From the NCBI GenBank assembly GCA_964422625.1, contig CAYRBN010000001.1:1-47226 (forward strand): a stretch of 47,226 bases of DNA, in the 5' to 3' direction. Shown here one piece after another: positions 3,180 through 43,774 of the stretch (positions within the stretch are counted from its first letter, which is position 1; every line of letters starts with the position of its first letter). The notes under the pieces are model-generated. The model was given only the letters and a program-made list of their open reading frames with translations, was not told the origin of the DNA and did no database searches. The position numbers were made by a program, and so were the translations under genes. The stretch is from an uncultured bacterium. GTDB taxonomy: Bacteria; Hydrothermota; UBA3073.

Positions 3180-3345
3180 GACACCTGACCAAAGACGGTT
3201 ATCAGTTATCGGTTATCGGTAAAGACCAACATCAAAGACAGTTATTAGTTATTGGTTATTAGGGCAATGGGGTACTTCATCCTTTTTCCTTTATCCCCCT
3301 ACCACCTGCCACCTAACAAACTAACTAACCAACTAACTACCTGCC
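3180..3345 (-). repeat. concatenated tandem-heptamer arrays downstream of acs
   Basis: Read on the minus strand: gttagtt-type, ggataaa-type, aataacc-type (ctaataaccaataactaataac), ccgataa-type and caggtgt-type units, each in 2-4 degenerate copies. Confidence 0.85.
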
Positions 3346-5504: not shown

Positions 5505-6689
5505 CTATTGAAGACTACCAAACGGTGAGATTGCTCTCAGTTTTTGAACAATCCGTGGCAAAACCTCCATAACATAGTCTATATCCTCTTCTGTATTATC
5601 CTTGCCAAAGCTGAATCTGATAGACCCCTGGGCTATCTCCGGTGAAATTCCAAGAGACAGAAGAACAGGGGAAGGCTCTAATGAGTCAGATGAGCAGGCA
5701 CTTCCACTGGATACTGCAATACCTTCATAATCCAGATTGAGTACCATTGACTCTCCCTCTACATATCTGACACAGATACTTAATGTCCCACCAAGTCTCT
5801 TTTCTGGATGCCCATTTATTAAACAGTCATCTATCTTCTCTACAATAGCCTGCTCTAATCTATCTCTCAAAGCCTTCAGTCTTTCCTCATCCTGTTTTTG
5901 CATAGCAATTTCACAAGCCCGACCTAATCCAACAATGCCAGGTATATTCTCGGTCCCTGCTCTTCTCCCCCTCTCGTGATGCCCCCCGTGTATGAGGCTC
6001 TCAATCTCTGTTCCCTTTCGGATAAAGAGAGCTCCAATTCCCTTTGGACCATAAAATTTGTGAGAGGATAGTGACAGGAGGTCAACTCCAAGGTCTCTCA
6101 CATCTGTATTAAGTTTTCCAACTGTCTGAACTGCATCAGTATGAAAATAGATCCCTGGTCTGTTCTTCGTTCTTCTATCTTCGTTCACTTTCTGAAGGAG
6201 TTCGCCAATTTCCTTGATGGGTTGGATCGTTCCTATCACATTATTTGCATGCATAATAGTGACTAAGACTGTCTTATCAGTAATAGCGTCTCTAAGGGCA
6301 TCCAGATCCACAATCCCATATTTATCAACACCGATGTATGTTAGATTAAATCCCTGTCTCTCAAGCCACTTACAGGTATTAACCGCTGCAGGATGTTCTA
6401 TTCTGGAGCTTATTATATGATTGCCTCTCTCTCTAACAGCAACCCCTTTGATTGCAAGATTGATTGCCTCTGTGCCTCCTGATGTGAAAAAGATCTCTTC
6501 TGGTTTGGCATTGAGGATTTTTGCAACCTTCTCTCGTGCCTGTTCTCGTGCCTCCTGTGCCTGTTGTGCGAATTGATAGATACTTGAAGGGTTACCATAC
6601 AACTCATTGAAATACGGGGTCATTGCCCTTACTACATCTGGGTCTGTGGGAGTGGTTGCGTTATGGTCCAGATATATAAACTTTCTCAT
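5505..6689 (-). CDS. nifS: cysteine desulfurase (NifS/IscS class V aminotransferase)
   Basis: PLP-lysine context SSHKFYGPKGIGAL and active-site loop SGSACSS. 394 aa. Confidence 0.9.
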   Translation of the reverse strand: MRKFIYLDHNATTPTDPDVVRAMTPYFNELYGNPSSIYQFAQQAQEAREQAREKVAKILNAKPEEIFFTSGGTEAINLAIKGVAVRERGNHIISSRIEHPAAVNTCKWLERQGFNLTYIGVDKYGIVDLDALRDAITDKTVLVTIMHANNVIGTIQPIKEIGELLQKVNEDRRTKNRPGIYFHTDAVQTVGKLNTDVRDLGVDLLSLSSHKFYGPKGIGALFIRKGTEIESLIHGGHHERGRRAGTENIPGIVGLGRACEIAMQKQDEERLKALRDRLEQAIVEKIDDCLINGHPEKRLGGTLSICVRYVEGESMVLNLDYEGIAVSSGSACSSDSLEPSPVLLSLGISPEIAQGSIRFSFGKDNTEEDIDYVMEVLPRIVQKLRAISPFGSLQ

Positions 6690-11769: not shown

Positions 11770-13752
11770 CTAAAAATCCTGGATATGCTCCCCTATGTTT
11801 GAGGCATGGAAATTTATCCGCTCAAGGTCTGAAATAAGGTCAAGATGCACGGTGCTGGTCTCTATCGATTCCGGAATCCTCTTCCTCAAGCGATCAAGAT
11901 GTCTATCATGGTATTTTGATAAAAGTTTCCTTCCCTCTCTGCCTCTTTTGACAACCTCCATAGCTAAAGCAGTGTCAGATGTAGCAAGTGCATTTATTGC
12001 CATTCCAAGCGTCTCTTTTGAAAACTCTGTAAATTCCTCTAACTCCATGAACCCCTTTTCTGAAAACAGAAACCCCTTTTTTATCTTCTTTTCCGCGTAG
12101 ATCATAAGACTCTTGGAGACAATATCCCCTATATGTTCAAACTGGTCCACTATATGGAGTAATTTTGCACTTCTCTTTGAAAGTTCCAGCGATACCTCCT
12201 CTTGTGACATCTTGATGAGATAGAGGGTTATATTCTCCTCCATGGCATCAACCCTATCATCATCCTTAACAAGCCTTGCCCTCTCGGTCTCCTCGTCTGT
12301 TCTGATCACTTCTATAGAGCGGGAAAGCATTGAGTGAACAATATCTGCCATTCTCAATATCTCCCTCAGTGCCTGTGCAATTGCGATTGTTGGTGATGAG
12401 AGTAGTGTATAATCAAGATAACGGGGTTGAAACTCGGTCTTTTTCTTGGGGATAAGTCGCTTTATCAATCTTGCATAAGGCATGAGCAGTGGTAAGAACA
12501 ATAAAGCAGAGAAGAGATTGAAGAGCGTATGTGCATTTGCAACCTGTCTTGGAGCAGAGCCAGGTATGTATCCCACAAGGGTGGCAAACTGGGGTATAAA
12601 TGGGAGGAAGATAGCCGCCATAATAACCCTGAATAGTATATGTGCAATGGCTACTCGCTTTGCCTCCACGCTTCTGCCGAGAGAGGCAAGTAAGGCTGTT
12701 ATTGATGTTCCTATATTTGCACCCAATATGATTGCTATAGCAGTTTGAAGATTTATCAACCCCTCAAATGAGAGTGCAAGGACAATTGCCATCGTAGCTC
12801 CTGATGCCTGGATTACGGCACTGAATAGGCTTGAGAGAACAAGCAGGGAAATATGATATTCTCCGATGCTCATAAGCTTATCAGTAACTCCGGGGAGGAA
12901 TGTGAGTGGATGAATTGCATCTGTCATAAGCTTCATGCCAAAGAATATGAGCCCAAATGAGAATATAACCCTGCCTGCATAGTGAATCCTTTTACCCTTT
13001 CCAAGTATCATCATAAAAAAACCGCCCGCAATAATGAGAAGTGCTATATCAAACACCTTAAATGCAATCAGTTGCACAGTCAATGTGGTTCCTATCCCTG
13101 CTCCAAGAATAACGCCAAGTGTCTGGACAAAATTTACAAGCCCTGCCTCGGCAAATGAGACAAGCATAACCGTTGTCGCTGAACTTGACTGCGTAAGTAT
13201 CGTGATGAATATACCAACAGCCACCCCAACAACAGGATTCTTTGTCATCCTCCACAGAAGCTCCCTTAACTTACCACCTGCTATTCTTGTGAGTGCCTTG
13301 CCACCAAAGTTGAGCCCATACATAAACAGAGCAAAGCCCCCTAACAGGCCAATTATTAGAAAGAAGAGAAAACCAGACCTCATCGCAATGTAGGAAAGCC
13401 TGACACCCTCCTCTGATAGAGGAGAGGTTGCAGAAAGCCAGTATTCACCCTCCATGTCTCCAGCCCCAAGAGAGAATATTGCATAGCCTCTTGAGTCTGT
13501 TGTTGCAGTGAAGATGGTGTTCAGGTATCCCTTATCTACCCCAGGCGGAGCAGATATAATTCTCAGGCTTACAGGAACTTCCTTCTGGGGAACACCCTCG
13601 TTATCTGTCACCTCAATAATCATAGGAGAGGGAAGTTTCGCACCCACGGTTGCCACCATCCCATCTCCTGATATATCATCTCCTCTTGCATCCCTTGCCC
13701 TTGTAAGGTAGAAAGGGTGAAGAAGAAGTATTATACATAGAAGACCGCTCAT
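11770..13752 (-). CDS. Na/Pi cotransporter family protein with C-terminal PhoU-like domains and an N-terminal Ig-like extension
   Basis: Multi-TM NaPi core (QSSSATT...) plus a PhoU-like helical tail. Start moved to ATG 13752 (MSGLLC...) because the track's TTG start lies on top of a consensus promoter. Confidence 0.85.
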   Translation of the reverse strand: MSGLLCIILLLHPFYLTRARDARGDDISGDGMVATVGAKLPSPMIIEVTDNEGVPQKEVPVSLRIISAPPGVDKGYLNTIFTATTDSRGYAIFSLGAGDMEGEYWLSATSPLSEEGVRLSYIAMRSGFLFFLIIGLLGGFALFMYGLNFGGKALTRIAGGKLRELLWRMTKNPVVGVAVGIFITILTQSSSATTVMLVSFAEAGLVNFVQTLGVILGAGIGTTLTVQLIAFKVFDIALLIIAGGFFMMILGKGKRIHYAGRVIFSFGLIFFGMKLMTDAIHPLTFLPGVTDKLMSIGEYHISLLVLSSLFSAVIQASGATMAIVLALSFEGLINLQTAIAIILGANIGTSITALLASLGRSVEAKRVAIAHILFRVIMAAIFLPFIPQFATLVGYIPGSAPRQVANAHTLFNLFSALLFLPLLMPYARLIKRLIPKKKTEFQPRYLDYTLLSSPTIAIAQALREILRMADIVHSMLSRSIEVIRTDEETERARLVKDDDRVDAMEENITLYLIKMSQEEVSLELSKRSAKLLHIVDQFEHIGDIVSKSLMIYAEKKIKKGFLFSEKGFMELEEFTEFSKETLGMAINALATSDTALAMEVVKRGREGRKLLSKYHDRHLDRLRKRIPESIETSTVHLDLISDLERINFHASNIGEHIQDF

Positions 13753-13762
13753 AGAGGCTCTT

Positions 13763-13791
13763 ATTATACTATACCTTTCCTGATATGTCAA
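13763..13791 (-). promoter_or_regulatory. sigma70-type promoter TTGACA-17-TATAAT, 10 nt before the Na/Pi ATG (near-leaderless)
   Basis: -35 at 13786-13791 and -10 at 13763-13768, read on the minus strand. No SD between -10 and the ATG. Confidence 0.7.
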
Positions 13792-13848
13792 GGGATTTTT
13801 AATTAGATTAGTCAACAGGTGGAGTGGCTTGCTCCATCTGTTATTGCT

Positions 13849-13985
13849 AATATTAGCACACAGATTTACACAGATAAAACTGATTTACACAAATATAATT
13901 CATTATAAAGATTTTTTTAAATCTGTGCCTATCTATTCAATCTGTGTAAATCTGTGTGCTTCTCCTCTTTTTTCCTTGACTTTTT
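13849..13985 (+). repeat. palindromic MITE-like element, copy 1, carrying an outward TTGACT box
   Basis: Perfect 21-nt terminal inverted repeats AGCACACAGATTTACACAGAT (13855-13875 / 13940-13960). About 137 bp near-identical to 24753-24891, including ...cttgacttttt. Confidence 0.85.
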
Positions 13986-17123: not shown

Positions 17124-19325
17124 ATGTACATCGTACTACTAAGCCTGGTCACATTCCTGTTTGATGGGGGTGTGGCAACAGTAGGGAGGTCTTATGCCCC
17201 GTTCGTAAATCCAGCAGGCATTGCAATATCGCCGGGGTTGGAGACCTCATATCTATTAGGTATAAATGGAGGGGAGGCGACCCATACCATTGGTCTATCT
17301 ATGGGAGGTATCGGGTTCGGAACAGAGATTAGAGGCGCAGAACGGAATTTTATCTTATCAAGTGGGCTTCGGATAAAAGACTGGATATATTTTGGTTCAG
17401 GATATAGATTTGGCGACATTGGGGGATATAACATTGGGACTATCATAAGACCGCACAGGTTTCTCTCCATTGGAGTGGTGGGAGATAAGATTGATGATAG
17501 ATATCTGGTCTCATCAGGGATTGGGGTGAGACCAGGGACAGACAGGATAACCCTCACCATTGATGGTGTCCTTGAACAGGATAAGGTGCCTGATTATAGA
17601 TTTGGGGCGAGGCTTGAACCAGTTGATGGAATATTTATAGAGGGCTATTGGGATGAAGACATCTGGAGGGCAGGTATCTCCCTATCTCTTGGCAATATTG
17701 GATTTGGTGGTAACATTGACGGAGCAGACAATTATAACGCGGGTATGGTGTTTTCAAGAGAGAGACACCCTACATTCAAAAAACCTGCCACAAGGTTTGC
17801 CGAGCTCATACTAAAGGGCTCTTATCCAGAACTTGAGAGGAGTGGTATCTTCTTTGAGAAGGTAACTGCACCTTTCTATAAACTACTTTCAAGGATAGAA
17901 GAGCTATCAAAAGAGGATGCCTGTAATGGCATACTTCTAGAACTGAAAGGTGCCCGGATGCGTATGAGCCAGTGGGAGGAGCTAAGAGACGCACTCGTTG
18001 ATTTCAAGGCAGAGGGCAAAAAGGTATATATCTATGGAACCCATTATGGATTTGGCTCTCTCTATCTCGCATCTGTGGCAGATTCAGTATTCCTTCATCC
18101 AGCAGGAATGGTCTTTATTCCGGGGATCCAGGCAAGGATGATATACATAAAAGGGACGATGGAGAAACTTGGAATAGAGGCACAGATAGAGAGGATTGGG
18201 AGGTTCAAATCCGCATCAGAACCATTTGAGAGAGAAGATATGTCAGAAGAGGATAGTCTCCAGCTTATGGAGTATCTCAGGGACATATACTATCCAACAA
18301 TAGAGACAATTGCAGAGGCAAGGGATATCTCACCAGACAGTCTAAAGAGACTGATAAACGAGGGGATCTTCTTTACAGGAGAGTCTGCACGAGAAGCAGG
18401 ACTCATAGATGCAGTCTGGGAGAAGAATAGAGTTGATTCCCTTGTTTTTGGAGAAAAGAGAGATAGATTCAGGAAAGAGAGGGAAGTGAAGAGAGGATGG
18501 AGAGAAGATAAAGAGAAGGAGAAGATAGCACTGATAATTGCAGAAGGGGGTATCATAGAGGGCAGATCATCAGACGGGTGGATAGGCTCAGATGATATGG
18601 TGAAGACACTTGAAAAGGTGAGGGATGATAAGAGCATAAAGGCGGTTGTGTTCAGAGTGAACTCTGGAGGAGGTTCTGCCATTGCATCAGAGATGATTGG
18701 CAAGGCGCTCAAGGATGTAGCAGGAGAGAAACCTGTTGTTGTCTCTATGGGGAGTGTTGCTGCTTCTGGTGGATATTATATATCTGCTTATGGAGACAAG
18801 ATATACGCAAATAACTCTACACTCACAGGTTCAATCGGGGTGATATGGGCTGGCTTTCTTTTCAAGGGGCTTTATGACAAGATTGGGATCTCCTGGGACA
18901 TAGTAAAATTGGGTAGGCATGCTGATATACTCTCTGACATCCGTGAGTGGGATGACTATGAACGGGAAAAGATAAGGGGAGCTACGGAGTGGTTCTATGA
19001 TAGATTCACATCTACGGTTGCGGATGGAAGAGATACGACAGCTGAATACATACACTCGATTGGAGAGGGAAGGATATGGAGCGGAGTGGATGCAAAGGAG
19101 ATTGGACTGGTTGATGAGATAGGCGGGATGTTTGCCGCACTGAAATCTGCTCAAGAGATGGCAGATATTGAAGAGAGAGATGTTGTGATATACCCAAAAC
19201 CAGAAAGGGGGTTCCGCTTTGACCCTACATTTGGGATCAGTAGTTCTCTATCATCTATCAAATCTCTTCTCTCATCAGAATATCTCTACATTATGCCATA
19301 TAAGATAGATGTGGAGGTGAGGTGA
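17124..19325 (+). CDS. sppA: signal peptide peptidase SppA (67K type, two S49 domains) with about 230-aa beta-rich N-terminal extension
   Basis: VVFRVNSGGGSAIASE and SMGSVAASGGYYIS motifs. RBS context is GGAGGTTGTATG. Confidence 0.85.
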   Translation: MYIVLLSLVTFLFDGGVATVGRSYAPFVNPAGIAISPGLETSYLLGINGGEATHTIGLSMGGIGFGTEIRGAERNFILSSGLRIKDWIYFGSGYRFGDIGGYNIGTIIRPHRFLSIGVVGDKIDDRYLVSSGIGVRPGTDRITLTIDGVLEQDKVPDYRFGARLEPVDGIFIEGYWDEDIWRAGISLSLGNIGFGGNIDGADNYNAGMVFSRERHPTFKKPATRFAELILKGSYPELERSGIFFEKVTAPFYKLLSRIEELSKEDACNGILLELKGARMRMSQWEELRDALVDFKAEGKKVYIYGTHYGFGSLYLASVADSVFLHPAGMVFIPGIQARMIYIKGTMEKLGIEAQIERIGRFKSASEPFEREDMSEEDSLQLMEYLRDIYYPTIETIAEARDISPDSLKRLINEGIFFTGESAREAGLIDAVWEKNRVDSLVFGEKRDRFRKEREVKRGWREDKEKEKIALIIAEGGIIEGRSSDGWIGSDDMVKTLEKVRDDKSIKAVVFRVNSGGGSAIASEMIGKALKDVAGEKPVVVSMGSVAASGGYYISAYGDKIYANNSTLTGSIGVIWAGFLFKGLYDKIGISWDIVKLGRHADILSDIREWDDYEREKIRGATEWFYDRFTSTVADGRDTTAEYIHSIGEGRIWSGVDAKEIGLVDEIGGMFAALKSAQEMADIEERDVVIYPKPERGFRFDPTFGISSSLSSIKSLLSSEYLYIMPYKIDVEVR

Positions 19326-19500
19326 AGGGAAAAGGAAAAAGGATAAAGGATAAAGGATAAAGGATGAAGGAGTGAGGCGTAGGGCGTAGGGCGTAAGGAG
19401 TAGGGCGTAATTGATAATCAGTTCCCTGACACCTAACACCTGACACCTGATTTGACCTAATAACCAATAACTAATAACAAATAACCAAGCTTACTGCTTA
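19326..19500 (+). repeat. concatenated tandem-heptamer arrays downstream of sppA
   Basis: Successive blocks: ggataaa x4, gcgtagg x4, acacctg x3-4, aataacc x4 (ctaataaccaataactaataac, identical to the acs-side copy) and cttactg x2. Confidence 0.9.
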
Positions 19501-19520
19501 CTGATAAAGGGGGGGGTTGT

Positions 19521-19742
19521 ATGGAAGAGGCAAGAATAAAAAGTGCAATAGGCAAAATAAGACCAGCAATCCAGAGAGATGGAGGAGATGTGAAGTTTCT
19601 CTCCTTTGATGGCGAAACGGTCAAGGTCAAGCTTATCGGTGCCTGCTCATGCTGTCCAATGGCTGGAATGACCCTGAAGAATACAATAGAAAAAGCGATA
19701 AAGAGTGAAGTGCCATCTGTGAAGAAGGTTGTTGCGGTATAG
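19521..19742 (+). CDS. NifU C-terminal-domain (Nfu-type) Fe-S cluster carrier
   Basis: 73 aa with IRPAIQRDGGDV...GACSCCPMAGMTLK. RBS is a G8 run. Confidence 0.8.
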   Translation: MEEARIKSAIGKIRPAIQRDGGDVKFLSFDGETVKVKLIGACSCCPMAGMTLKNTIEKAIKSEVPSVKKVVAV

Positions 19743-19859
19743 GAAGGTCAAAAAGTCAAAAGATCTAAAGGTCATCCTTAATGACATGGTAACCCATTAA
19801 CCTGATTACTGATAACCGATTACTGATAACTGGTTACTAACTACTGCTTACTGATAGGG
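19743..19859 (+). repeat. tandem-heptamer arrays between nfu and tRNA-Ala
   Basis: gtcaaaa-type units are followed by eight units of gattact/gataacc/ggttact/gcttact. Confidence 0.85.
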
Positions 19860-19935
<76 letters not shown>

Positions 19936-20282: not shown

Positions 20283-21958
20283 TCATCTCAAAATAACTAT
20301 CTTTTGAGTCATTGCTTCTGTTCCCGTAGTCAATTTTACAAAGTATACTCCCGTAGCTATATCTTTCACACTCCATATCACACTCTCTTCACCTGCAGGT
20401 AACCTTCCATTTATAAGTTCTGTAACCATCTGCCCCAACAGATTATAGATTCTGAGTGAGACATCAGCCTCTTCTTTTAGCATAAACGAAATCCGGGCAT
20501 TATCTTTGATTGGCTTTTCTATCTCTAAGATAGAAAAGGTATAGCTATATTCTTCCACCCCAACAGTGATGATGTCTCCCAGGTCTCCGGGCAGGATCTG
20601 ATAACTACCATCATAAGGTGGTTCATTATCGTTCTGGTCTAAAATTCCTACTACACTTATGGGCCAGGAGGGTTCTTCACTGCCATCTATATTTGTGTTA
20701 TTATATATCCTTAATGTAACGGTATCTATTCCATCTTCATCTGTTATAAGTATGTTGGCACTCACCCCTGAAGGGGGCCAGGGTGTGGCATCCGCCCTGT
20801 TCACACTGTCAACCCTGATGAGTCTCCCCTCATAGGTTTCCTCAAAGTCTGATAGGAGAATCAAGGATGGTGAGGGAACACGGTTAGAGCCTAATCTTTT
20901 TAGCCTTTCTATACCCCTTATCTGGGTCATTCCAAAAGACTGATATACTTCTCCTGCAACCCTTATTGAATCCCCCCTCCATATCTCTGGGTCATATCTT
21001 GGGATCCATACCATAATCCCGGCTTCTCCATCCTGGAGGAAAATGCTGTGTGGTGATACAATATACCATTCAACAGTCGCAACCCCCTCAATCATTACCA
21101 TCTCACCCTTCTTATCGGGAATAAAGTCAGCATCTCCATCAACTTTTACGGAGGAAATCGTGGATATATCTCCCCAGAACCAGGCAGTATCAGTAATCAT
21201 AAGATTACCAGCAAGGTCATTTAATCCAGAGACAACAAGTCTATAGAAGAGATTAGATTGTGGGGATGTAGTGAGATGAACAAGCATAGGATCAACTGGA
21301 TCAAGTTGAGCAGATGTTATGCTTATTCCCTGGTCAATGCTATAATTGGCTGTGTCCTCTGCAGAGGCCTTGATTAATGGCTCATTGAATCTGATATTTA
21401 CAGAATCCTCTCCCCAGGAGAAAGCAGTTATTATGTAAGGTGGGGTAATATCTGGACCACCTGTAACGAATGCGGAATCTACATAGACACTGGCAGAGAT
21501 AATAGTATCCCCCCAGTCTACATCATATACCCTTATCTCTACATGCACGGTCTCGGCCTCTAAAGGGGCAAGCGCAGATAGGGCTAATCCCTGCCAATCT
21601 GTGCTATCAACGGAATAATCTGTATTATCGTTTGATATCCAACTGCCATCACCCCTAAACCACCTCACGGTGCCTCTCACTCTCCCGTAAGGGTCATTAT
21701 CATATACCCAGAAAGTATATGCATAGATTGCGGCAGCAGTGGCAGGAAGTTTCTGGTATATCCAGCGTGTAGGCGTTGTAGCCCACAGGAGTTTGCAGGC
21801 ATATATTCCTGTGTAGATTATACTATCTTCTTGCTCTGCTGTGAGGCCCGGACCTGATGTGCTCCAGTCATCCAGTACCCCGGCTGTCCATTCCTCAGGT
21901 GGTTTTGTCCACTGGTAACTCCCGAAAGGAGAGATAGAATCAATATCAGCTCACACAT
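20283..21958 (-). pseudogene. T9SS-sorted surface protein (Ig-like/SbsA-type domain plus Por C-terminal domain) with a frame break after the signal peptide
   Basis: GGAGG+ATG 21958 gives signal peptide MCELILILSLLSGVTSGQ in one frame, which stops at 21818. The mature region is open in the -1 frame from 21950 to 20283 with no start before GTG 21680. The C-terminus VSLRIYNLLGQ...GVYFVKL is a T9SS CTD. Confidence 0.6.
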
Positions 21959-24752: not shown

Positions 24753-24891
24753 AATATTAGCACACAGATTTTCACAGATAAAACTGATTTACACAAATAT
24801 AATTCATTATAAAGATTTTTTTTGAAATCTGTGCCTATCTATTCAATCTGTGAAATCTGTGTGCTTTTCCTCTTTTTTTTCTTGACTTTTT
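24753..24891 (+). repeat. palindromic MITE-like element, copy 2, carrying the holA -35 box
   Basis: TIRs are AGCACACAGATTTTCACAGAT (24759-24779) and ATCTGTGAAATCTGTGTGCT (24846-24865). The interior is near-identical to copy 1. Confidence 0.85.
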
Positions 24892-24915: not shown

Positions 24916-25866
24916 ATGGGGAGTATAGACTACCTGAAGGCAAAAAAAGAGATAGAGAGGGGAGTTATCAAAAATAGTTACCTTCTTGCCGGAGAGAACG
25001 AGTTTCTTAAAGAGGAGATTATAACTCTCCTTGAGGAAACTCTTATAAATAAGAAGACAAGGCTATTTGACAGGACAAAGTTTTATGGGGATGAACTTCC
25101 AGACAATCTCCACAGGCAGATAACTTCTCTACCTATCTCCTCTAAAAGGCACCTGAGTATAATTCGGAGTGTAGATAAGATAAAGAAAGAGAAAGGGAAA
25201 AAGGAGATAAAAAAACTTCTAAAGTTGTCCTCTCCATACCTGTGTATTGTTCTGACAGATGGAAAACAGAAGAAAAAAAGATCTCAGTTTTTGAACTGGC
25301 TCCTTTCTAATACAGAAACTGTTTGGTGCAAGAATTTTTCAGAAGATGCTATCAAGAGATGGGTGTCTGATAAGGTGAAAGACCGAGGAAGAGATATTTC
25401 CAGGGATGCAGTCTCGCTATTGGTTGATTTTGTTGGTGATGATATGTATTCACTCTCATCAGAGATAAGAAAACTTCTCTCATTTAAGTCAGAAGGAAGA
25501 GTTGATAGAGAAGATATTGAAAAGATTGTAGGAATAGATAGATTGTCCTCTGTTTATGAACTTGAATCCGCTATTTGCAGGAAGAATATTAAGAAAGGGA
25601 TGAAGGCACTAAACAACCTTCTCCTCTGGGGCGAAAAGCCAGGGGCTATACTTTACAGACTCGGGAAATGGCTGATGGCATCATCTTCAGGTAGACCATG
25701 GAAGAACGGACTTGAGTTCAGAGATGCTGCAATTGGTCTCTCTACACTGACAGAAATAGAGGTAGAGATAAGAGAGGGACGAATAGACGACAGGTTTGCA
25801 GTTGAGGAATTTGTATATAAACTTTGCAAAACCGAGTGCAAAAAGTCAGTTTACCCTGTTAAATAG
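24916..25866 (+). CDS. holA: DNA polymerase III delta subunit
   Basis: 316 aa. N-terminal NSYLLAGENEFLKEEI and C-terminal LLLWGEKPGAILYRLGKW match the HolA pattern. Confidence 0.75.
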   Translation: MGSIDYLKAKKEIERGVIKNSYLLAGENEFLKEEIITLLEETLINKKTRLFDRTKFYGDELPDNLHRQITSLPISSKRHLSIIRSVDKIKKEKGKKEIKKLLKLSSPYLCIVLTDGKQKKKRSQFLNWLLSNTETVWCKNFSEDAIKRWVSDKVKDRGRDISRDAVSLLVDFVGDDMYSLSSEIRKLLSFKSEGRVDREDIEKIVGIDRLSSVYELESAICRKNIKKGMKALNNLLLWGEKPGAILYRLGKWLMASSSGRPWKNGLEFRDAAIGLSTLTEIEVEIREGRIDDRFAVEEFVYKLCKTECKKSVYPVK

Positions 25867-25948: not shown

Positions 25949-26001
25949 TTCTTACGCTGGTTCAATAAAAAGGAAAAAGGATAAAGGATAATGAGGAGCT
26001 T

Positions 26002-28098
26002 ATGATTTTTCTTTATTTAGTCATTTTAGCCATCCCTGTATGGTCTACTGATACCTGGGATGGAGGAGGGGGACAGTTCATCTGGAATGATACAAGTATG
26101 TATCTATATTCAGAGGGGTTATGTGGAGGAAGATTCCATGGCAAGATTGTACTCTATACCCCTTACCTTTCAGAACCACATTTTGTCAATCTTGAGGGAC
26201 TGAAGGAACTACATGTCATTATCCAATTACCTGATGGGAGGATACTTATAGCAGGGGAAAAGAATAATAGCGGAGTTATATATCTGAGTGAGGATGGAGG
26301 ATATACATGGAGTGAAGCAGTGCTACCCCCAGATATTCTCTCTGTCAGATCTCTAACTTATTATGATGGAAAATTTATTGCAGGAGTTACAGATATTCAT
26401 AATCGGGGATATATACTCCTTTCAGATAATGGGATAAGCTGGACACTAGAGAGTGGACATATGGAACATTCTATTTTGTCTCTCCTTGTAAGGGCGGATG
26501 GATACGGGTTTGCAGGAACAGGAAATCGCGGATGGCTGTACTGGACAAATTTTGCAAAGGATTGGAGTGGGCTAACAGTGATAGGATTATTAGGTATCAG
26601 AACCATAAACCATCTTTACCAGACATCCTCTGGCAGGATATATGCGGCAACAAGATCTACAACCAATGAGGGAAGGGTGTTCTATTCTGATATTGGTGGA
26701 ACAGGTGGATGGGAACTTATCCCTTCTATATTTGGACAGTCTGCATACTCTATAGCAGAGGATGATAAAGGGAATCTATATGTGGGAACAGGAGATTTTG
26801 ATGGAAGGGTATTTGTGATACGGGAAGATATTGTGAGTGGGACCCCTGCGACCGGAACCCAGAGGGTCAATTCTGTCCTCTCTGATTTTGATGGAGATAT
26901 ATACATTGGAGCAACCTCTTTTGAGGGTGGAGTCAATGTTGGAAGAATCCTCGTCTTCTCTAATGGTGACTGGGTCCACTCGGTCAAGGTGGACACATTG
27001 AGAGCAATAAGGGTTATTTTCATCACCCAGGATGGGAAGTTGGTCTTTGGTGGTGAAGGTAGCTATATCGGGGTTTACGGACATAGGAGAGAGGGTTTTC
27101 TGGTCTCTTCAATCTATGATGTTGGCACTGATAATGGGAGTGTCCGATACCGCTATATTGATTGGGATGGTACCCTAAACGGTGGAGCGATCACGGTAAG
27201 GGTAAGGACAGGAACATCCACTGATACATCCCAATATCTCCCCTGGGAATACTGCCCCCCACTGGAGAAAGGACAGTTCCTTGAGGGTGTAAATGGTATC
27301 AATCCTGGGGATAGATATATCCAGTACAGAGTGGACATCTCATCGCCCTCATCTGCCCTGACACCGCTATTTCATAATATTAGGGTATTTTACACGATAG
27401 ATACTGTTGGTCCTATAATTACGAGTACGGAAGTATTTATGGAACCAGAATCATATCCATATATAGATTCTTTAGACCTTGTATTCAGTGAACCGACAAA
27501 CCGTCCTGATATATATATAGGAAACATTGACAGGGTTCTATCTCTCTCAAATAATCACTCATGGCTTTCAAGTGATGGGTTTATAGGAGGGATTGGCTGG
27601 GTCTCTGATGAGAGACTCCGAATAAGGCTTCTCTTCTTTGGTGACACGCCTGCAACAGTGCGTATTGGGGATATGATATATCCCGACTCATCCACAATAA
27701 GGGATGAATATGAAAATCCAAGTGTTAGGCCTGTTGCTATTAAACAGATCGGTATAGAAGAGAGAGAAAAATTAAGAATTACGAATTATGAATTAAGAAT
27801 TTATCCAAATCCGTTCAGAGGCTTCGTGCGTATAGCGTATAGCGTAATGCGTAATGCGTCAGAGAAACACTCTACGCCTAACGCTCTACGCCCTACGCCT
27901 TACGCTTTACGCATCTACGACCTCTCAGCCCGCCTCATCCGCACCATACCGATTACCGAACACCGATTACCGATTACCGAAGTAACCTGGGATGGCAGGG
28001 ATAAACAGGGAAACGAGGTAAAGTCAGGGGTATATTTTATAAGATTGGAGGGGACCTCTTTCCAGGAGATAACAGAAAAGGTTATACTGATCCGATAA
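26002..28098 (+). CDS. secreted BNR/beta-propeller protein with T9SS C-terminal sorting domain
   Basis: Signal peptide, BNR motifs (SEDGGYTWS, SDNGISWT) and a C-terminus IYPNPF...LRIYDL...VTWDGRDKQGNEVKSGVYFIRL. Confidence 0.8.
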   Translation: MIFLYLVILAIPVWSTDTWDGGGGQFIWNDTSMYLYSEGLCGGRFHGKIVLYTPYLSEPHFVNLEGLKELHVIIQLPDGRILIAGEKNNSGVIYLSEDGGYTWSEAVLPPDILSVRSLTYYDGKFIAGVTDIHNRGYILLSDNGISWTLESGHMEHSILSLLVRADGYGFAGTGNRGWLYWTNFAKDWSGLTVIGLLGIRTINHLYQTSSGRIYAATRSTTNEGRVFYSDIGGTGGWELIPSIFGQSAYSIAEDDKGNLYVGTGDFDGRVFVIREDIVSGTPATGTQRVNSVLSDFDGDIYIGATSFEGGVNVGRILVFSNGDWVHSVKVDTLRAIRVIFITQDGKLVFGGEGSYIGVYGHRREGFLVSSIYDVGTDNGSVRYRYIDWDGTLNGGAITVRVRTGTSTDTSQYLPWEYCPPLEKGQFLEGVNGINPGDRYIQYRVDISSPSSALTPLFHNIRVFYTIDTVGPIITSTEVFMEPESYPYIDSLDLVFSEPTNRPDIYIGNIDRVLSLSNNHSWLSSDGFIGGIGWVSDERLRIRLLFFGDTPATVRIGDMIYPDSSTIRDEYENPSVRPVAIKQIGIEEREKLRITNYELRIYPNPFRGFVRIAYSVMRNASEKHSTPNALRPTPYALRIYDLSARLIRTIPITEHRLPITEVTWDGRDKQGNEVKSGVYFIRLEGTSFQEITEKVILIR
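27769..27980 (+). repeat. four heptamer arrays embedded in-frame inside the T9SS CTD coding region
   Basis: aattaag x4 (27769-27802), gcgtata/gcgtaat x4 (27828-27859), the inverse word ctacgcc x5-6 (27872-27912) and ccgatta x4 (27949-27980). Confidence 0.85.
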
Positions 28099-28121
28099 CA
28101 GGTGGAGCATCTTGCTCCACA
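28097..28121 (+). repeat. 25-nt hairpin repeat aacagGTGGAGCAtcttGCTCCACa
   Basis: Identical 25-mer at 36122-36146. Degenerate copies at 13815-13841 and 8989-9007. It begins inside the stop codon of the upstream gene and has no T-run. Confidence 0.8.
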
Positions 28122-28149
28122 GAAAGGAAAGTTGATAAGAGGAGCCATT

Positions 28150-29571
28150 ATGAAATTTAGACAGATTGATAATATCAGATGGGAACTGGAGAAATCTGGC
28201 GGTATGAGGGTGGCAGGTCTTATATATGCGGACAGGGAGCCTCTCGGGCATATTGAGGAAGAGAATGTGGCAGAACAGGTTGCAAAGGTTGCACACCTTC
28301 CAGGTATTGTTGGCTATTCACTTGGAATGCCTGATATCCACTGGGGATACGGATTTCCCATAGGAGGGGTCGCTGGAACGAGAATGAGTGATGGCGTCAT
28401 CTCCCCTGGAGGTGTTGGTTATGATATAAACTGTGGAGTGAGATTGCTGAGAACAGGGCTTACAGAGGATGATGTCAGACCAAGACTTGGACAGCTTCTT
28501 GATATGATATATAACAATATCCCCTGTGGAGTCGGTTCAAAAGGCAAACTGAGATTGACACAGGGAGAACTTGAATCTGTCCTGATGCTGGGCGCAAGAT
28601 GGATGGTGGAGAACGGTTTTGGAAAGAAGGATGACTTGCTTGTATTAGAGGAGGAAGGATGCCTGAAATATGCAGACACCGCGAAAGTGAGCAAGAGGGC
28701 ACTTGAGAGGGGAAGACCACAGCTTGGCACACTCGGTGCTGGCAACCATTTTCTTGAAGTTCAGGTAGTTGATAAAATCTATAATCCAGCAGTTGCAGAT
28801 CTGTTCGGGCTCATTGAAGGTGAGATAACTTGTATGATTCACACAGGTTCAAGGGGATTTGGGCATCAGGTATGTGATGACTATCTCAGGGTCTGTGAGT
28901 CTGCGGTGAAGAAGTATCATATAAACCTTCCTGATAAGGAACTCTCCTGCGCTCCCATAGATTCAAAAGAGGGAAGGGACTATCTTGCTGCTATGGGCTG
29001 TGCTGCAAACTTTGCATGGGCAAATCGGCAGTGCATAACCCACTGGATAAGAGAGTCATTTATTAGTTTATTTAGAAATGTCCAACTGGATATAATATAT
29101 GATCTTGCCCATAATATAGCAAAAATTGAGAAACATAAAGTGGATGGAAAAACTTATGAGATCTGCGTGCATCGTAAAGGGGCTACAAGGGCGTTTCCAA
29201 AGGGACATAAAGATATCCCAGAGATATATAGAGATGTTGGTCAGCCAGTTCTTATCCCTGGTGATATGGGGACACACTCTTATATACTGGTAGGGACTGA
29301 TATCGCAATGGAAGAAACATTCGGTTCCACCTGTCACGGTGCAGGGAGAAAAATGTCAAGACATAAGGCAGTAAAACTGTCAAAAGGAAGGAAGATTGAC
29401 AAAGAACTTAAAGAGAAGGGAATTCTGGTGCGCGCAAAGTCCTATAGGACACTTATGGAAGAGATGTCTGATGCCTATAAAGATATAAATAGGGTGGTAG
29501 ATGTTGTGGAGCGTGCAGGAATTTCAAGAAAGATTGCCAGGATGAGTCCCATAGGAGTTGTAAAGGGATGA
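28150..29571 (+). CDS. rtcB: RNA-splicing ligase RtcB
   Basis: GYDINCGVR, HTGSRGFGHQV and CHGAGR motifs. Start at MKFRQID, preceded by AGAGGAG. Confidence 0.95.
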   Translation: MKFRQIDNIRWELEKSGGMRVAGLIYADREPLGHIEEENVAEQVAKVAHLPGIVGYSLGMPDIHWGYGFPIGGVAGTRMSDGVISPGGVGYDINCGVRLLRTGLTEDDVRPRLGQLLDMIYNNIPCGVGSKGKLRLTQGELESVLMLGARWMVENGFGKKDDLLVLEEEGCLKYADTAKVSKRALERGRPQLGTLGAGNHFLEVQVVDKIYNPAVADLFGLIEGEITCMIHTGSRGFGHQVCDDYLRVCESAVKKYHINLPDKELSCAPIDSKEGRDYLAAMGCAANFAWANRQCITHWIRESFISLFRNVQLDIIYDLAHNIAKIEKHKVDGKTYEICVHRKGATRAFPKGHKDIPEIYRDVGQPVLIPGDMGTHSYILVGTDIAMEETFGSTCHGAGRKMSRHKAVKLSKGRKIDKELKEKGILVRAKSYRTLMEEMSDAYKDINRVVDVVERAGISRKIARMSPIGVVKG

Positions 29572-33305: not shown

Positions 33306-34130
33306 ATGGTCTGTCCACAATGTAGAAACGCTATTGAACAAAATTGGTTCTTCTGCGCATGGTGCGGAGTAAACATTGTATATTATCATAAAGCGCTAGA
33401 GTACATAGACCATGGAAAACATCTTGAGGAGATATATAGATACGATGAGGCACTCACATCTTATCAGAAAGCAGTTTCATTTGGTATAGCATCAGATACT
33501 GTCGATCCTTTACTGGAAAAAGTATCTAAATTGCTTGATAGGTTTATCTATCTGAGTGACAAAGGTAGATCACTGAAAAGGAAGGGAAAGTGGAGAGCTG
33601 CTTATCTATCACTCAGGAAGGCATCTTTATTAAATCCGATAGATGATTCGATCAAAAGAGATTTAACTTTTCTTAAGGACAAGTTACAGAAAAGGTTACG
33701 GAGAAAGATTATATATATAGTAACAATTTTCACTCTTCTTGTTGTTGGAGGAACTAGTTATCTCTGGTATATCAATACTCCACAGTATTTAGCAAGAAAG
33801 ACACTGATAAAATCCACATATTCTACAAATGCAGTTGTCCGCAGGAGAGCAATTGAGGCAATGGGCAATGTGGGGGACAGGAGATTCCTTCCGATTATAA
33901 GAGAGTACCTTGCGGATTCGGATACCTATGTAAGACAAGAGGCAATAAGGGCTTTGTTCAAGATTGAAGATACTGCAAGTGTGGAGTATATAAGACCCCT
34001 TATGAAGGACGATGATGAGAGAGTGAGGATAACCGCTGCAAAACTACTCGCAGATATGGGTGATTCCTCTGCAATGAACTATTTGAGAAGATTCGTGAAT
34101 AGAGGAGAGAGAAGTGAGAGTAGTGAGTAG
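33306..34130 (+). CDS. zinc-ribbon / TPR-like / single-TM / HEAT-repeat protein (paralog 3)
   Basis: CPQC...CAWC, TM segment IIYIVTIFTLLVVGG and HEAT units (VRRRAIEAMGNVGDRRFLPII..., DERVRITAAKLLADMGD). RBS is AGGAGG. Confidence 0.6.
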   Translation: MVCPQCRNAIEQNWFFCAWCGVNIVYYHKALEYIDHGKHLEEIYRYDEALTSYQKAVSFGIASDTVDPLLEKVSKLLDRFIYLSDKGRSLKRKGKWRAAYLSLRKASLLNPIDDSIKRDLTFLKDKLQKRLRRKIIYIVTIFTLLVVGGTSYLWYINTPQYLARKTLIKSTYSTNAVVRRRAIEAMGNVGDRRFLPIIREYLADSDTYVRQEAIRALFKIEDTASVEYIRPLMKDDDERVRITAAKLLADMGDSSAMNYLRRFVNRGERSESSE

Positions 34131-34350
34131 TGAGTAGTGAGTAGAGCGTAAGGCGTAGAGCGTAGGAAGTAGAGCGTAGGGCGTAATCGGTTATCAGTAA
34201 TCGGTAAAAACCAGACCTCCCTCAGTCATTAATCTTGACCTTTGACTTTTAGACTTTTACACCTGGCACCTGACACCTGGCACCTATAACTTATTTGAAT
34301 TTGTGATTTGGAATTTGTTTGTGATTTGTGATTTGAAATTTGGAATTTGT
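34113..34350 (+). repeat. long concatenation of heptamer arrays (six or more words)
   Basis: In order: gtgagta, gcgtaga/gcgtagg, cggttat/cagtaat, cttgacc/tttgact, acacctg/gcacctg and gaatttg/tgatttg blocks. The first block encodes the last codons of the upstream ORF. Confidence 0.9.
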
Positions 34351-42958: not shown

Positions 42959-43723
42959 TCACCGGGTTTTTCTGTCTCTCTCTTTTTTGGTGTCTGTCTT
43001 GTTGCCATCTTGATTACCTCCTTTCAATATAACCTCATCATACAATCTTCTTGCAAACCTGAGGTCATCCCATGCACCATGCTTCCAGCTCTCATGATAG
43101 AGAAGAGCAGCGGGATGATATGTGGGAATTACCTTTATATTATTGTAATACAAAATATTTCCCCTTATAGAAGATAGAGAGCCGTCATAACCAAGCAAAA
43201 GATTGATGGCATGCCTGCCAAGTGCAAGTATAAGCTCAGGATTTATAATCTCTATCTGTCTTTTGAGATGCATCTTGCAAGACTCTACCTCATCTGGTTC
43301 TGGGTCTCTGTTACCAGGAGGTCTACACTTGAGAACATTGGCTATATACACATCATCCCTCGTTAATTCTATTGCCTCTAACATCTTTGTAAGCAGCTTT
43401 CCAGCCCTACCAACAAATGGCTCACCCTTTATATCCTCTTCCTCTCCCGGCGCCTCTCCAATAAGCATCATAATTGCATGTTCATCACCTTTTCCAAATA
43501 CCGTATTTTTTCTTGTCTTGTGGAGTTGGCATCGTTTACATTCCTTGCAAAGCGCTTCTAATTCCCTTAGGGAACTCACCACTTTATATGGCTTTTTTTC
43601 TTGCGTAGCTGAAGCTACGCTACTACTTGGTAAAGAAACCCTGTCAAAGAACAGAAACTCCTCTCCAAGCATCTCTATCTCTTTTAGATAGTTCAAAACA
43701 AGTGTTCTCAGGCTATCTCGCAT
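42959..43723 (-). CDS. udg: family-4 uracil-DNA glycosylase (Fe-S type) with N- and C-terminal extensions
   Basis: CKRCQL...GEAPGEEEDIKGEPFVGRAGKLL and HPAALL motifs. Confidence 0.85.
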   Translation of the reverse strand: MRDSLRTLVLNYLKEIEMLGEEFLFFDRVSLPSSSVASATQEKKPYKVVSSLRELEALCKECKRCQLHKTRKNTVFGKGDEHAIMMLIGEAPGEEEDIKGEPFVGRAGKLLTKMLEAIELTRDDVYIANVLKCRPPGNRDPEPDEVESCKMHLKRQIEIINPELILALGRHAINLLLGYDGSLSSIRGNILYYNNIKVIPTYHPAALLYHESWKHGAWDDLRFARRLYDEVILKGGNQDGNKTDTKKERDRKTR

Positions 43724-43731
43724 ACTCCATC

Positions 43732-43774
43732 CCCTTCCCTTTTTCCTTTATCCTTTTTCCTTTATCCTTTTTTT
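43732..43774 (-). repeat. ggataaa/ggaaaaa heptamer array spanning the coaBC stop and the coaBC-udg spacer
   Basis: The minus strand reads aaaaaaaggataaaggaaaaaggataaaggaaaaagggaaggg and encodes ..KKRIKEKG-stop. Confidence 0.85.

Follow-up and report, generated by a model that had tools for sequence, protein, structure and literature searches.

Sorting domain and heptanucleotide arrays

The window analysed here is a 47,226-nt stretch (contig CAYRBN010000001.1, assembly GCA_964422625.1) from an uncultured bacterium that GTDB places in the Hydrothermota (UBA3073). On its forward strand, an open reading frame (ORF) at 26002..28098 encodes a predicted 698-aa cargo protein consisting of a hydrophobic N-terminal leader (recognised by eye), a beta-propeller (Reg_prop/BNR), a linker, and a type A C-terminal sorting domain (CTD) of the type IX secretion system (T9SS). 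The CTD module starts at a conserved GIEE boundary motif and occupies 27751..28095 (forward strand), with a Por_Secre_tail match at residues 600-695 (nt 27799-28086) that ends three residues upstream of the stop codon, at the extreme C-terminus of the cargo. Within this module lie four short tandem arrays of heptanucleotides, all on the forward strand and within 212 nt. The preliminary description of this DNA, made from the letters alone, had claimed that four period-7 arrays are read in frame within a T9SS CTD, and Tandem Repeats Finder (TRF, period-7 rows), frame reading, profile matches, and fold prediction all bear this out.

Array 1 (27770..27804; TRF 27770-27801, 4.6 copies) has five units of the AATTAAG type (aattaag aattacg aattatg aattaag aatttat) and encodes KLRITNYELRI(Y). 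The five units of array 2 (27828..27862; TRF 27827-27859, TGCGTAA, 4.7 copies) belong to the GCGTATA/GCGTAAT type (gcgtata gcgtata gcgtaat gcgtaat gcgtcag) and encode (V)RIAYSVMRNAS, VRIAYSVMRNAS. Array 3 (27872..27913; TRF 27870-27919, CTCTACG/CTACGCC, 7.0 copies) comprises six CTACGCC/TTACGC units (ctacgcc taacgct ctacgcc ctacgcc ttacgct ttacgca) encoding STPNALRPTPYALRI, and array 4 (27949..27983; TRF 27947-27980, TACCGAT, 4.9 copies) comprises five CCGATTA units (ccgatta ccgaaca ccgatta ccgatta ccgaagt) encoding PITEHRLPITE(V). All four are interrupted, with 80-88% matches over their 5-6 units, and the remaining 3' third of the CTD (27984..28098, forward strand; WDG...SGVYF...VILIR and the stop codon) has no TRF rows. 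The peptides were given correctly in the preliminary description (KLRITNYELRI, ...AYSVMRNASEKHSTPNALRPTPYALR, and PITEHRLPITE), and the 21-nt, 7-aa peptide period reported there is real: as 7 is not a multiple of 3, each array is read in all three phases, giving a 7-aa periodic peptide.

Only one of the six frames is open across the array segment, as had been proposed; between 27769 and 27980 the frame of the ORF is free of stops, and the other five contain 4-8 stops each. In array 1, the consensus would place a TAA in frame only in unit 3, where the codon (27787..27789, forward strand) is TAT. In array 2, gcgtata gives tat at 27838 where gcgtaat would put TAA in frame, gcgtaat gives atg at 27847 where gcgtata followed by g would put TAG in frame, and gcgtcag gives tca at 27859 where gcgtaat would put TAA in frame. 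The AGTAGTC array of an unrelated CTD (locus L040) has TAT and AAG at sites where TAG would be in frame. In the window, the CTD motifs are in frame upstream of, between, and downstream of the arrays. Read in this way, all in-frame consensus stops are edited out, and the array lengths preserve the reading frame. A general preference of CTD arrays for stop-free words was considered and rejected, as 74% of their words are stop-free vs. 67% of flank words, both near the random expectation, which suggests that stops are removed by editing single units instead.

Predicted fold and position of the arrays

The C-terminus of the 698-aa protein matches the Por_Secre_tail, FlgD_ig, and TIGR04183 profiles of Pfam and NCBIfam. 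Scored in isolation, the CTD lies just above both curated cut-offs, with 27.9 bits for PF18962 (cut-off 27) and 24.0 bits for TIGR04183 (cut-off 23), and its Por_Secre_tail match extends 96 residues over 74 profile positions; the full-length protein falls below both cut-offs. An AlphaFold2 model of residues 582-698 shows seven strands in an Ig-like beta-sandwich (mean predicted local distance difference test score (pLDDT) 84.6, predicted template modelling score 0.76). The top match of this model in a Foldseek search of the PDB is PorU (6ZA2; E 6e-5, TMq 0.60), PorZ (5M11) is also within ranks 1-3, and a substrate-bound T9SS complex (8GLK, chain 8glk_D) ranks 11. Relatives carry the NCBI name 'T9SS type A sorting domain-containing protein [candidate division WOR-3 bacterium]'. 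Judged by sequence and predicted fold, the ORF at 26002-28098 is best read as an intact gene with a T9SS type A sorting domain, neither a pseudogene nor a misassembly.

The arrays had been described as inserts in the loops of this domain, a view that the model contradicts by placing them on beta1, beta2, beta3, and the beta4/beta5 turn, with one lengthened loop only. In the model, array 1 forms beta1 directly before YPNPF (aa 12-20 of the domain) and has the same length as the corresponding segment in orthologues. Array 2 forms beta2 and the start of a long loop, array 3 supplies the second half of this low-confidence loop (pLDDT ~54) and then, from its 3' half, beta3 (YALRIY), and array 4 runs from the last part of beta4 through the turn into the first part of beta5, in a segment of canonical length. 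Alignments with array-free homologues, including the second CTD of the window, agree that the segments of arrays 1 and 4 are of usual length and fall on canonical CTD positions, which partly refutes the proposed insertion; only the beta2-beta3 segment is longer than in most homologues, by ~13 aa. Because of this strand mapping and the usual segment lengths, the arrays are mostly predicted to occupy canonical structural positions and not to be loop inserts.

A second T9SS CTD of the window (20283..20540, reverse strand; Por_Secre_tail 38.8 bits) has no TRF rows and serves as an internal control. The preliminary description had stated that this domain lacks the arrays and has shorter strand-connecting loops. 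The first part stands, as does the second for the beta2-beta3 segment, which is 13 aa shorter; the other segments are equal in length in the two domains. Taken together, the frame, the profiles, and the model indicate that the arrays are translated within an intact sorting domain, to which they contribute strands plus one long loop.

Array-bearing modules in paralogous cargo genes

An exhaustive HMMER search with the CTD, which replaced an uninformative word-index search (14 candidates), returned 11,883 matches (E <= 0.001). The closest CTD belongs to an S8 peptidase (P0020, locus L033; 68% identical), and another to a C25 peptidase (P0030, locus L034; 55% identical), both annotated in WOR-3 and from the same BRAZ22 sample set as the scaffold of the window. 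Arrays are found in both paralogues at the same sites and with equal unit counts. At the DNA level, the array-bearing part is 83-100% identical to that of L033 (array 2, 36/36; array 3, 36/42; array 4, 33/37), and array 4, with the same five units, is 89-97% identical to both paralogues (33/37 and 36/37), compared to only 52% (L033, 60/115) and 62% for the 3' third of the CTD. In the C25 copy, the two arrays that form a hairpin in the window (see below) are missing, and beta2 is encoded by GTTATCA/CGGTTAT, a word that also occurs as an intergenic array at 3196-3220. Based on these identities, the array-bearing part looks exchanged or homogenised among the paralogues.

In L033, the counterpart of array 3 is a nearly pure (TTACGCC)5.7 tract (3248-3287) of the same length as the window's array 3, which is degenerate, with six substitutions. 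Given this difference in purity, the window copy may be older or more diverged than that of L033.

Full-length orthologues of the cargo protein are present in metagenome-assembled genomes of other candidate division WOR-3 bacteria (49-50% identity, 100% coverage). In the orthologues with 49% identity, the CTD is of another variant, which has no arrays (loop ECINPIDAVTWSQHS) and is also found on unrelated cargo, indicating that CTD variants do not follow cargo phylogeny. Two further observations concern this variant: its DNA contains a perfect 8-bp hairpin (gctgtgac-atg-gtcacagc; L004, 4282-4300) in the same beta2-beta3 loop, and the loop peptide EC[IL]xxVDAVTxSQHS also occurs on unrelated cargo proteins (P0125, P0137).

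Recurrence in related sorting domains

The preliminary description had suggested a check of other CTDs of the genome for ITNYELR-like or PITE-like periodic peptides, and PITE-like peptides do recur at one position on numerous cargo proteins that are otherwise unrelated. Dozens of unrelated proteins among the best CTD matches carry 7-aa periodic peptides at the three array sites, such as LPITDYRLPITEVTWDG, the literal translation of (TTACCGA)n, NSQLTISNYQLSIYPNPF, and IQDTRYMIQDTRYMIQD...IYD. In 92 CTD cluster representatives, the identity of amino acids seven positions apart reaches 0.12-0.15 within the three variable segments vs. ~0.05 at other lags and 0.046 in the tail after WDG.

A metagenome scan keyed on the motif IYD[LIA][STA]GR[LFV][VI][RK], and not on arrays, yielded 80 loci. 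At least one period-7 CTD array is present in 40 of these (mostly at site 2, n = 36, and site 3, n = 19), with dozens of different words, although the 50% figure is inflated to some extent by the ranking of the loci by similarity to an array-bearing query. The array-bearing module is common to paralogous cargo genes, and its architecture recurs with different words in about half of the related CTDs. The array density is 2.17/kb in CTD-coding DNA, 0.09/kb in other long ORFs, and 0.35/kb in DNA outside long ORFs, and 22 of the 49 flank arrays adjoin another CTD-like motif pair. The site 2 segment has a median length of 27 aa with arrays and 20 aa without. All motifs lie in one open frame in 73 of 78 unique CTDs; the five exceptions are motif-pattern misses or cut or truncated sequences, and none has its frame shifted at an array. 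Length differed in a single case, P0071, by one extra PITDYRS period, equal to three additional units.

One of the loci, L112, was considered as an 'OFF' allele and rejected, as it has a truncated CTD without beta1 whose break is not at an array. At 500-960 this locus carries a CTD without beta1 and YPNPF, the preceding cargo frame stops inside the would-be beta2, and the gene is probably broken or rearranged.

Word sharing between CTD and spacer arrays was also assessed in the survey and was not upheld as a general feature: it was first seen in 6 of 18 loci, falling to 1 of 9 when limited to DNA outside long ORFs. Since this sharing fell and many flank arrays lie in neighbouring CTDs, it is the window itself that supports the claim of shared words.

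Contigs with arrays have 36-57% GC, and the most GC-rich contigs have none. In an unrelated CTD of a more GC-rich organism (P0014, locus L032), a 21-nt period encoding HDARCRV/HDARLTI lies directly before PNPF (40-110), and a CTCATTG array of four units (240-280), translated as SLLVAHRSLLV, directly precedes TWDG, so the pattern extends beyond the AT-rich WOR-3 genomes. The contig depth over the array words of the window (27764-28003; runs X1, X2, X3, and X6) is 10- to 60-fold above that of the flanking gene. In X2, for example, it reaches 4617 at 27956-27979 vs. 79 in the flanks, with one loose end leading into another CTD (...GIYDLTGRL). This rise suggests that many other loci of these vent communities carry the same heptamer arrays.

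A hairpin formed by arrays 2 and 3

The preliminary description was also right that the gcgtaat and ctacgcc arrays are mutually complementary and can form an imperfect hairpin within the coding sequence. By folding and complementarity, this hairpin spans 27827..27913 on the forward strand, with its 5' arm in array 2 (27827-27862) and its 3' arm in array 3 (27878-27913). The 36-nt arms are 78% complementary, and the predicted RNA minimum free energy is -47.2 kcal/mol (z = -5.8; none of 200 shuffles folds as well). The absence of a U-run 3' of the hairpin indicates that it is not terminator-like. An Rfam scan gave no family match to the arrays or the hairpin, its sole match being a tRNA-Ala. The paralogue L033 keeps the hairpin (z = -6.0). 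The idea that the DNA coding for the beta2-beta3 segment generally forms a hairpin was rejected, as the mean z is -0.63 over 80 CTDs vs. -0.39 for cargo controls; the hairpin is particular to this CTD variant.

Arrays elsewhere in the window

Period 7 dominates the tandem repeats of the whole window, with 29 period-7 TRF rows vs. 1.1 per shuffle (20 dinucleotide-preserving shuffles) and vs. 1-8 rows for periods 6 and 8-12. Twenty-four of the 29 arrays are intergenic or lie at gene ends, and the four CTD arrays are coding. Apart from the CTD, the sole period-7 array deep within a long ORF is GTTCTTC (3.6 copies, 6162-6186) in the reverse-strand ORF 5505-6689.

Several words of the CTD arrays recur in TRF-detected intergenic clusters. 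One of these (19331..19503) includes 4.9 copies of GGCGTAG, the reverse complement of the array 3 word CTACGCC, and another (34109..34349) has GCGTAGG/GCGTAAG units followed by gcgtaat and cggtaat, the latter being the reverse complement of ccgatta. GGCGTAG is located at 19376-19409 and 34141-34185, ccgatta/ctgatta at 19802-19855, and gcgtaat and cggtaat at 34190-34206. Intergenic words had been proposed to have been exapted into the gene. The word families are indeed held in common with the spacers of the window, but the direction of transfer is unproven, and the claim must be weighed against the finding that two paralogous cargo genes carry the entire array-bearing module with an almost identical base sequence.

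AAAGGAT arrays, which contain a Shine-Dalgarno-like AGGA, lie directly upstream of start codons at 25969-25991, 19331-19371, and 43738-43770. The first is 11 nt upstream of the ATG at 26002, the second follows the stop codon at 19325, and the third, on the minus strand, precedes the start at 43723; they resemble the TAACTGA arrays upstream of start codons (MacGregor 2015, PMC4679880). The array clusters at 19489-19522 and 19841-19860 share an end junction, gcttactgcttactgata followed by a G-run. The former lies before a small NifU-like ORF (~72 aa, 19523-19741; ATG at 19523), and the latter runs into a tRNA-Ala(CGC) at 19860-19935. Two period-10 arrays, ACACAGATTT (3.5 copies, 13858-13891) and AATCTGTGTA (1.9 copies, 13939-13957), are reverse complements of each other, ~50 nt apart, and lie just beyond the start of the minus-strand gene 11770-13815.

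Stability of the array region

The 698-aa protein is identical in three other assemblies (L001-L003), and the DNA of the gene is identical in two of these, the third having one synonymous difference (27255 C>T). Over up to 8 kb, the window differs from the three assemblies by a one-base indel and two single-nucleotide polymorphisms, none of them in an array. The indel, at 24872, is an extra T in L001-L003, in the spacer upstream of a holA-like gene (24916-25866). Logan contigs from four samples of hydrothermal vent and aquatic metagenomes (2015-2024) show 0 differences and 0 indels over 27500-28200, bearing in mind that such contigs drop minority variants and would hide rare unit-number alleles.

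Origin of the arrays

We favour, with moderate confidence, an explanation that combines a lineage-wide bias towards heptamer formation, a permissive beta-sandwich, selection for the reading frame, and exchange among paralogous CTDs. The segment would be the 5' two thirds of a T9SS type A CTD coding sequence that, in this WOR-3 lineage, is built of short tandem heptanucleotide arrays, with periodic peptides supplying the alternating-hydrophobic beta1, beta2, and beta3 strands, the beta4/beta5 turn, and one probably floppy beta2-beta3 loop. The arrays may arise by a lineage-wide 7-nt slippage bias that would also fill the intergenic spacers (cf. PMC4692102). They could persist if a cleaved-off beta-sandwich needs little beyond a strand pattern, the segment length, and the motifs YPNPF, IYDxxGR, WDG, and SGVYF, with purifying selection acting against stops and shifts of the frame. 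Array-bearing versions would then be spread and homogenised among the numerous paralogous CTDs by gene conversion or module exchange, which would account for the higher array density of CTDs relative to spacers. The hairpin is probably incidental, resulting from the adjacency of two complementary words.

Several observations weigh against this combination. Passive tolerance alone predicts no excess of arrays in CTDs, whose DNA is ~6 times denser in arrays than the spacers, and amplification by gene conversion is inferred from a single paralogue trio. At site 3, the segment median is 18.5 aa with arrays and 18 aa without, and arrays that come without lengthening are not explained by simple slippage expansion. 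The higher DNA identity of the array-bearing part could reflect selection at the nucleic-acid level. In the metagenome survey, arrays are carried by 24 of the 40 loci most similar to the query vs. 16 of the lower 40. The full-length protein scores below the curated cut-offs (PF18962, 21.8 vs. 27; TIGR04183, 18.3 vs. 23), and the RNA evidence consists of a single metatranscriptome contig (27095-27522) that lies outside the arrays.

The strongest competing explanation, which we nevertheless regard as unlikely, is that selection acts on the nucleic acid, with the arrays and the hairpin serving as cis elements of T9SS cargo genes and their 5' leaders and the protein being merely tolerant of them. 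As candidate roles, the arrays might be bound by an RNA-binding protein or be recognised by antisense or small RNAs with complementary arrays. This would fit the 83-100% DNA identity of the array part between paralogues against ~52% for the rest of the CTD, the higher array density in CTD DNA than outside long ORFs, the occurrence of the same word families just upstream of start codons and antisense in intergenic clusters, and the strong hairpin kept in L033. A post-transcriptional role has also been proposed for the TAACTGA arrays (MacGregor 2015, PMC4679880). However, the words vary widely between lineages and even between the sites of one CTD, so that a sequence-specific binder would have to co-vary with them, and the hairpin propensity of site 2 is not general (mean z -0.63 vs. 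-0.39 in controls). Moreover, only one of nine loci shares a word between its CTD and the arrays outside long ORFs, no Rfam family matches, and the units are freely edited against stops.

A more far-reaching version, to which we likewise assign a low probability, holds that the arrays are actively generated or maintained in CTDs. The 5' two thirds of the domain would be a cassette driven by recombination or slippage, evolving in concert in all cargo genes of a genome and having a word code in common with the 5'-leader arrays. Such a cassette could act as a nucleic-acid address that couples the expression of the T9SS secretome via an RNA-binding protein or a complementary small RNA, or it could provide microhomology joints for grafting CTDs onto new cargo.

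It is quite improbable that the arrays form a contingency switch in which slipped-strand gain or loss of one 7-nt unit shifts the frame, destroys the CTD, and stops cargo export. Heptanucleotide simple sequence repeats (SSRs) do drive phase variation elsewhere, e.g. in H. influenzae hmw1A (PMC8262952), T9SS cargo is surface-exposed or secreted and such proteins are the usual clients of contingency loci, a one-unit change necessarily causes a frameshift, and L033 has a nearly pure tract of 5.7 units. Against this, the tracts are short (~5-6 units), interrupted, and edited to keep the frame open. Unit numbers are equal in the three other assemblies, in the contigs of four samples over 9 years (in which low-frequency switching would be hidden), and in the three paralogues, and the 73 of 78 unique CTDs in one frame, the lack of array frameshifts in the rest, and a sole length variant of three units all speak against a switch.

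Slightly less probable again is that a 7-residue protein motif (LPITDYR, ELRITNY) is selected for its strands or for recognition by the T9SS, with the DNA period being secondary. LPITD[YH]R[LS]PITEV-like peptides do recur at the same position on many unrelated cargo proteins, the length of site 3 is tightly conserved, and the arrays fall on strands. Yet selection on the peptide predicts a 21-nt period with synonymous drift and not one heptamer read in three phases; the observed peptides are exactly what pure arrays give on translation, the same sites hold dozens of words and peptides unrelated to one another, and array-free CTDs such as that at 20283-20540 are common.

An artefact, either a misassembled repeat or a decaying gene with an accidentally open frame, is scarcely credible: repeats break short-read graphs, Logan unitigs end within the arrays, and the full-length profile scores are low, but the same gene is present in three other assemblies, the Logan unitigs of the four samples match 27500-28200 with 0 differences, the frame is open against 4-8 stops elsewhere with in-frame motifs around the arrays and a confident predicted fold, and the architecture recurs in two paralogues and 40 other loci.

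Comparison with known systems and implications

The domain resembles other T9SS type A CTDs (TIGR04183/PF18962) in its C-terminal position, its motif order (YPNPF...IYDxxGR...WDG...SGVYF...K-x-hydrophobic tail), its seven-strand Ig-like sandwich, and its occurrence on varied cargo, here a beta-propeller protein, an S8 peptidase, and a C25 peptidase. It differs from the usual form in that its N-terminal two thirds derive from heptanucleotide arrays, the beta2-beta3 loop is ~13 aa longer, a conserved G[IV]EE boundary is followed by a periodic peptide before YPNPF, and profile scores are depressed.

Heptanucleotide repeats themselves are known from several bacterial groups. In Beggiatoaceae, Cyanobacteria, and Bacteroidetes, intergenic DNA is rich in tandem TAACTGA heptamers, which often lie a short distance 5' of start codons; a minority lies in ORFs, where the reverse orientation translates as the 7-aa peptide LSVISYQ at the protein periphery (PMC4679880). 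In those genomes one word dominates and the in-ORF cases are mostly hypothetical proteins or extreme protein ends, whereas here there are many words per genome, and the arrays, which recur at three fixed sites, supply strands to the structure of a recognised domain and are denser in it than in the spacers. Bacterial heptameric SSRs are likewise mainly intergenic and show a preference for period 7 over neighbouring periods, for which polymerase slippage was proposed as the cause (PMC4692102). The window shows the same preference, but the SSRs were described there as non-coding and not as building blocks of protein domains. With SSR contingency loci such as H. influenzae HMW1A (PMC8262952), the arrays have in common a non-triplet repeat associated with a gene for a surface or secreted protein. 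They differ in showing no unit-number polymorphism in assemblies, contigs, or paralogues, in consisting of short interrupted tracts with no long pure one, and in lying inside a structural domain and not in a promoter or at the 5' end of the coding sequence. A further parallel may be drawn with palindromic amphipathic repeat coding elements (PARCELs; PMC2996958), which are reported to be self-complementary translated repeat DNA common to unrelated genes; the units described there are long and horizontally spread, whereas here the units are 7 nt and the palindrome results from two adjacent complementary arrays.

In the literature searched, no account of T9SS CTDs built from heptamer arrays was found. 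The usual view is that coding DNA excludes non-triplet microsatellites, or that they work in it only as frameshift switches. While heptameric SSRs, STRR repeats, TAACTGA arrays, and T9SS CTDs were each known before, the translated non-triplet SSRs found here are recurrent, site-specific, and structural, and this locus is apparently one instance of a broader, undescribed pattern. For protein evolution, this means that the folded beta-strands of a conserved secretion signal can come from non-triplet microsatellites, and do so time and again at fixed sites, both in WOR-3 and in many metagenome contigs. Here nature offers an example of simple repeats being turned directly into protein sequence. 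Should the arrays be actively generated or maintained, non-triplet microsatellites would be a routine source of structural beta-strands in a conserved domain. The ~6-fold excess of arrays in CTDs, together with the mosaic of near-identical DNA among the paralogues, points to concerted evolution or a function at the nucleic-acid level, either of which can now be tested. For the biology of the T9SS, the N-terminal half of the signal appears to need little sequence, which would be useful for the design of minimal signals and tags. Finally, as the arrays depress profile scores and the full-length protein falls under both cut-offs, T9SS cargo is probably undercounted in these uncultured lineages.

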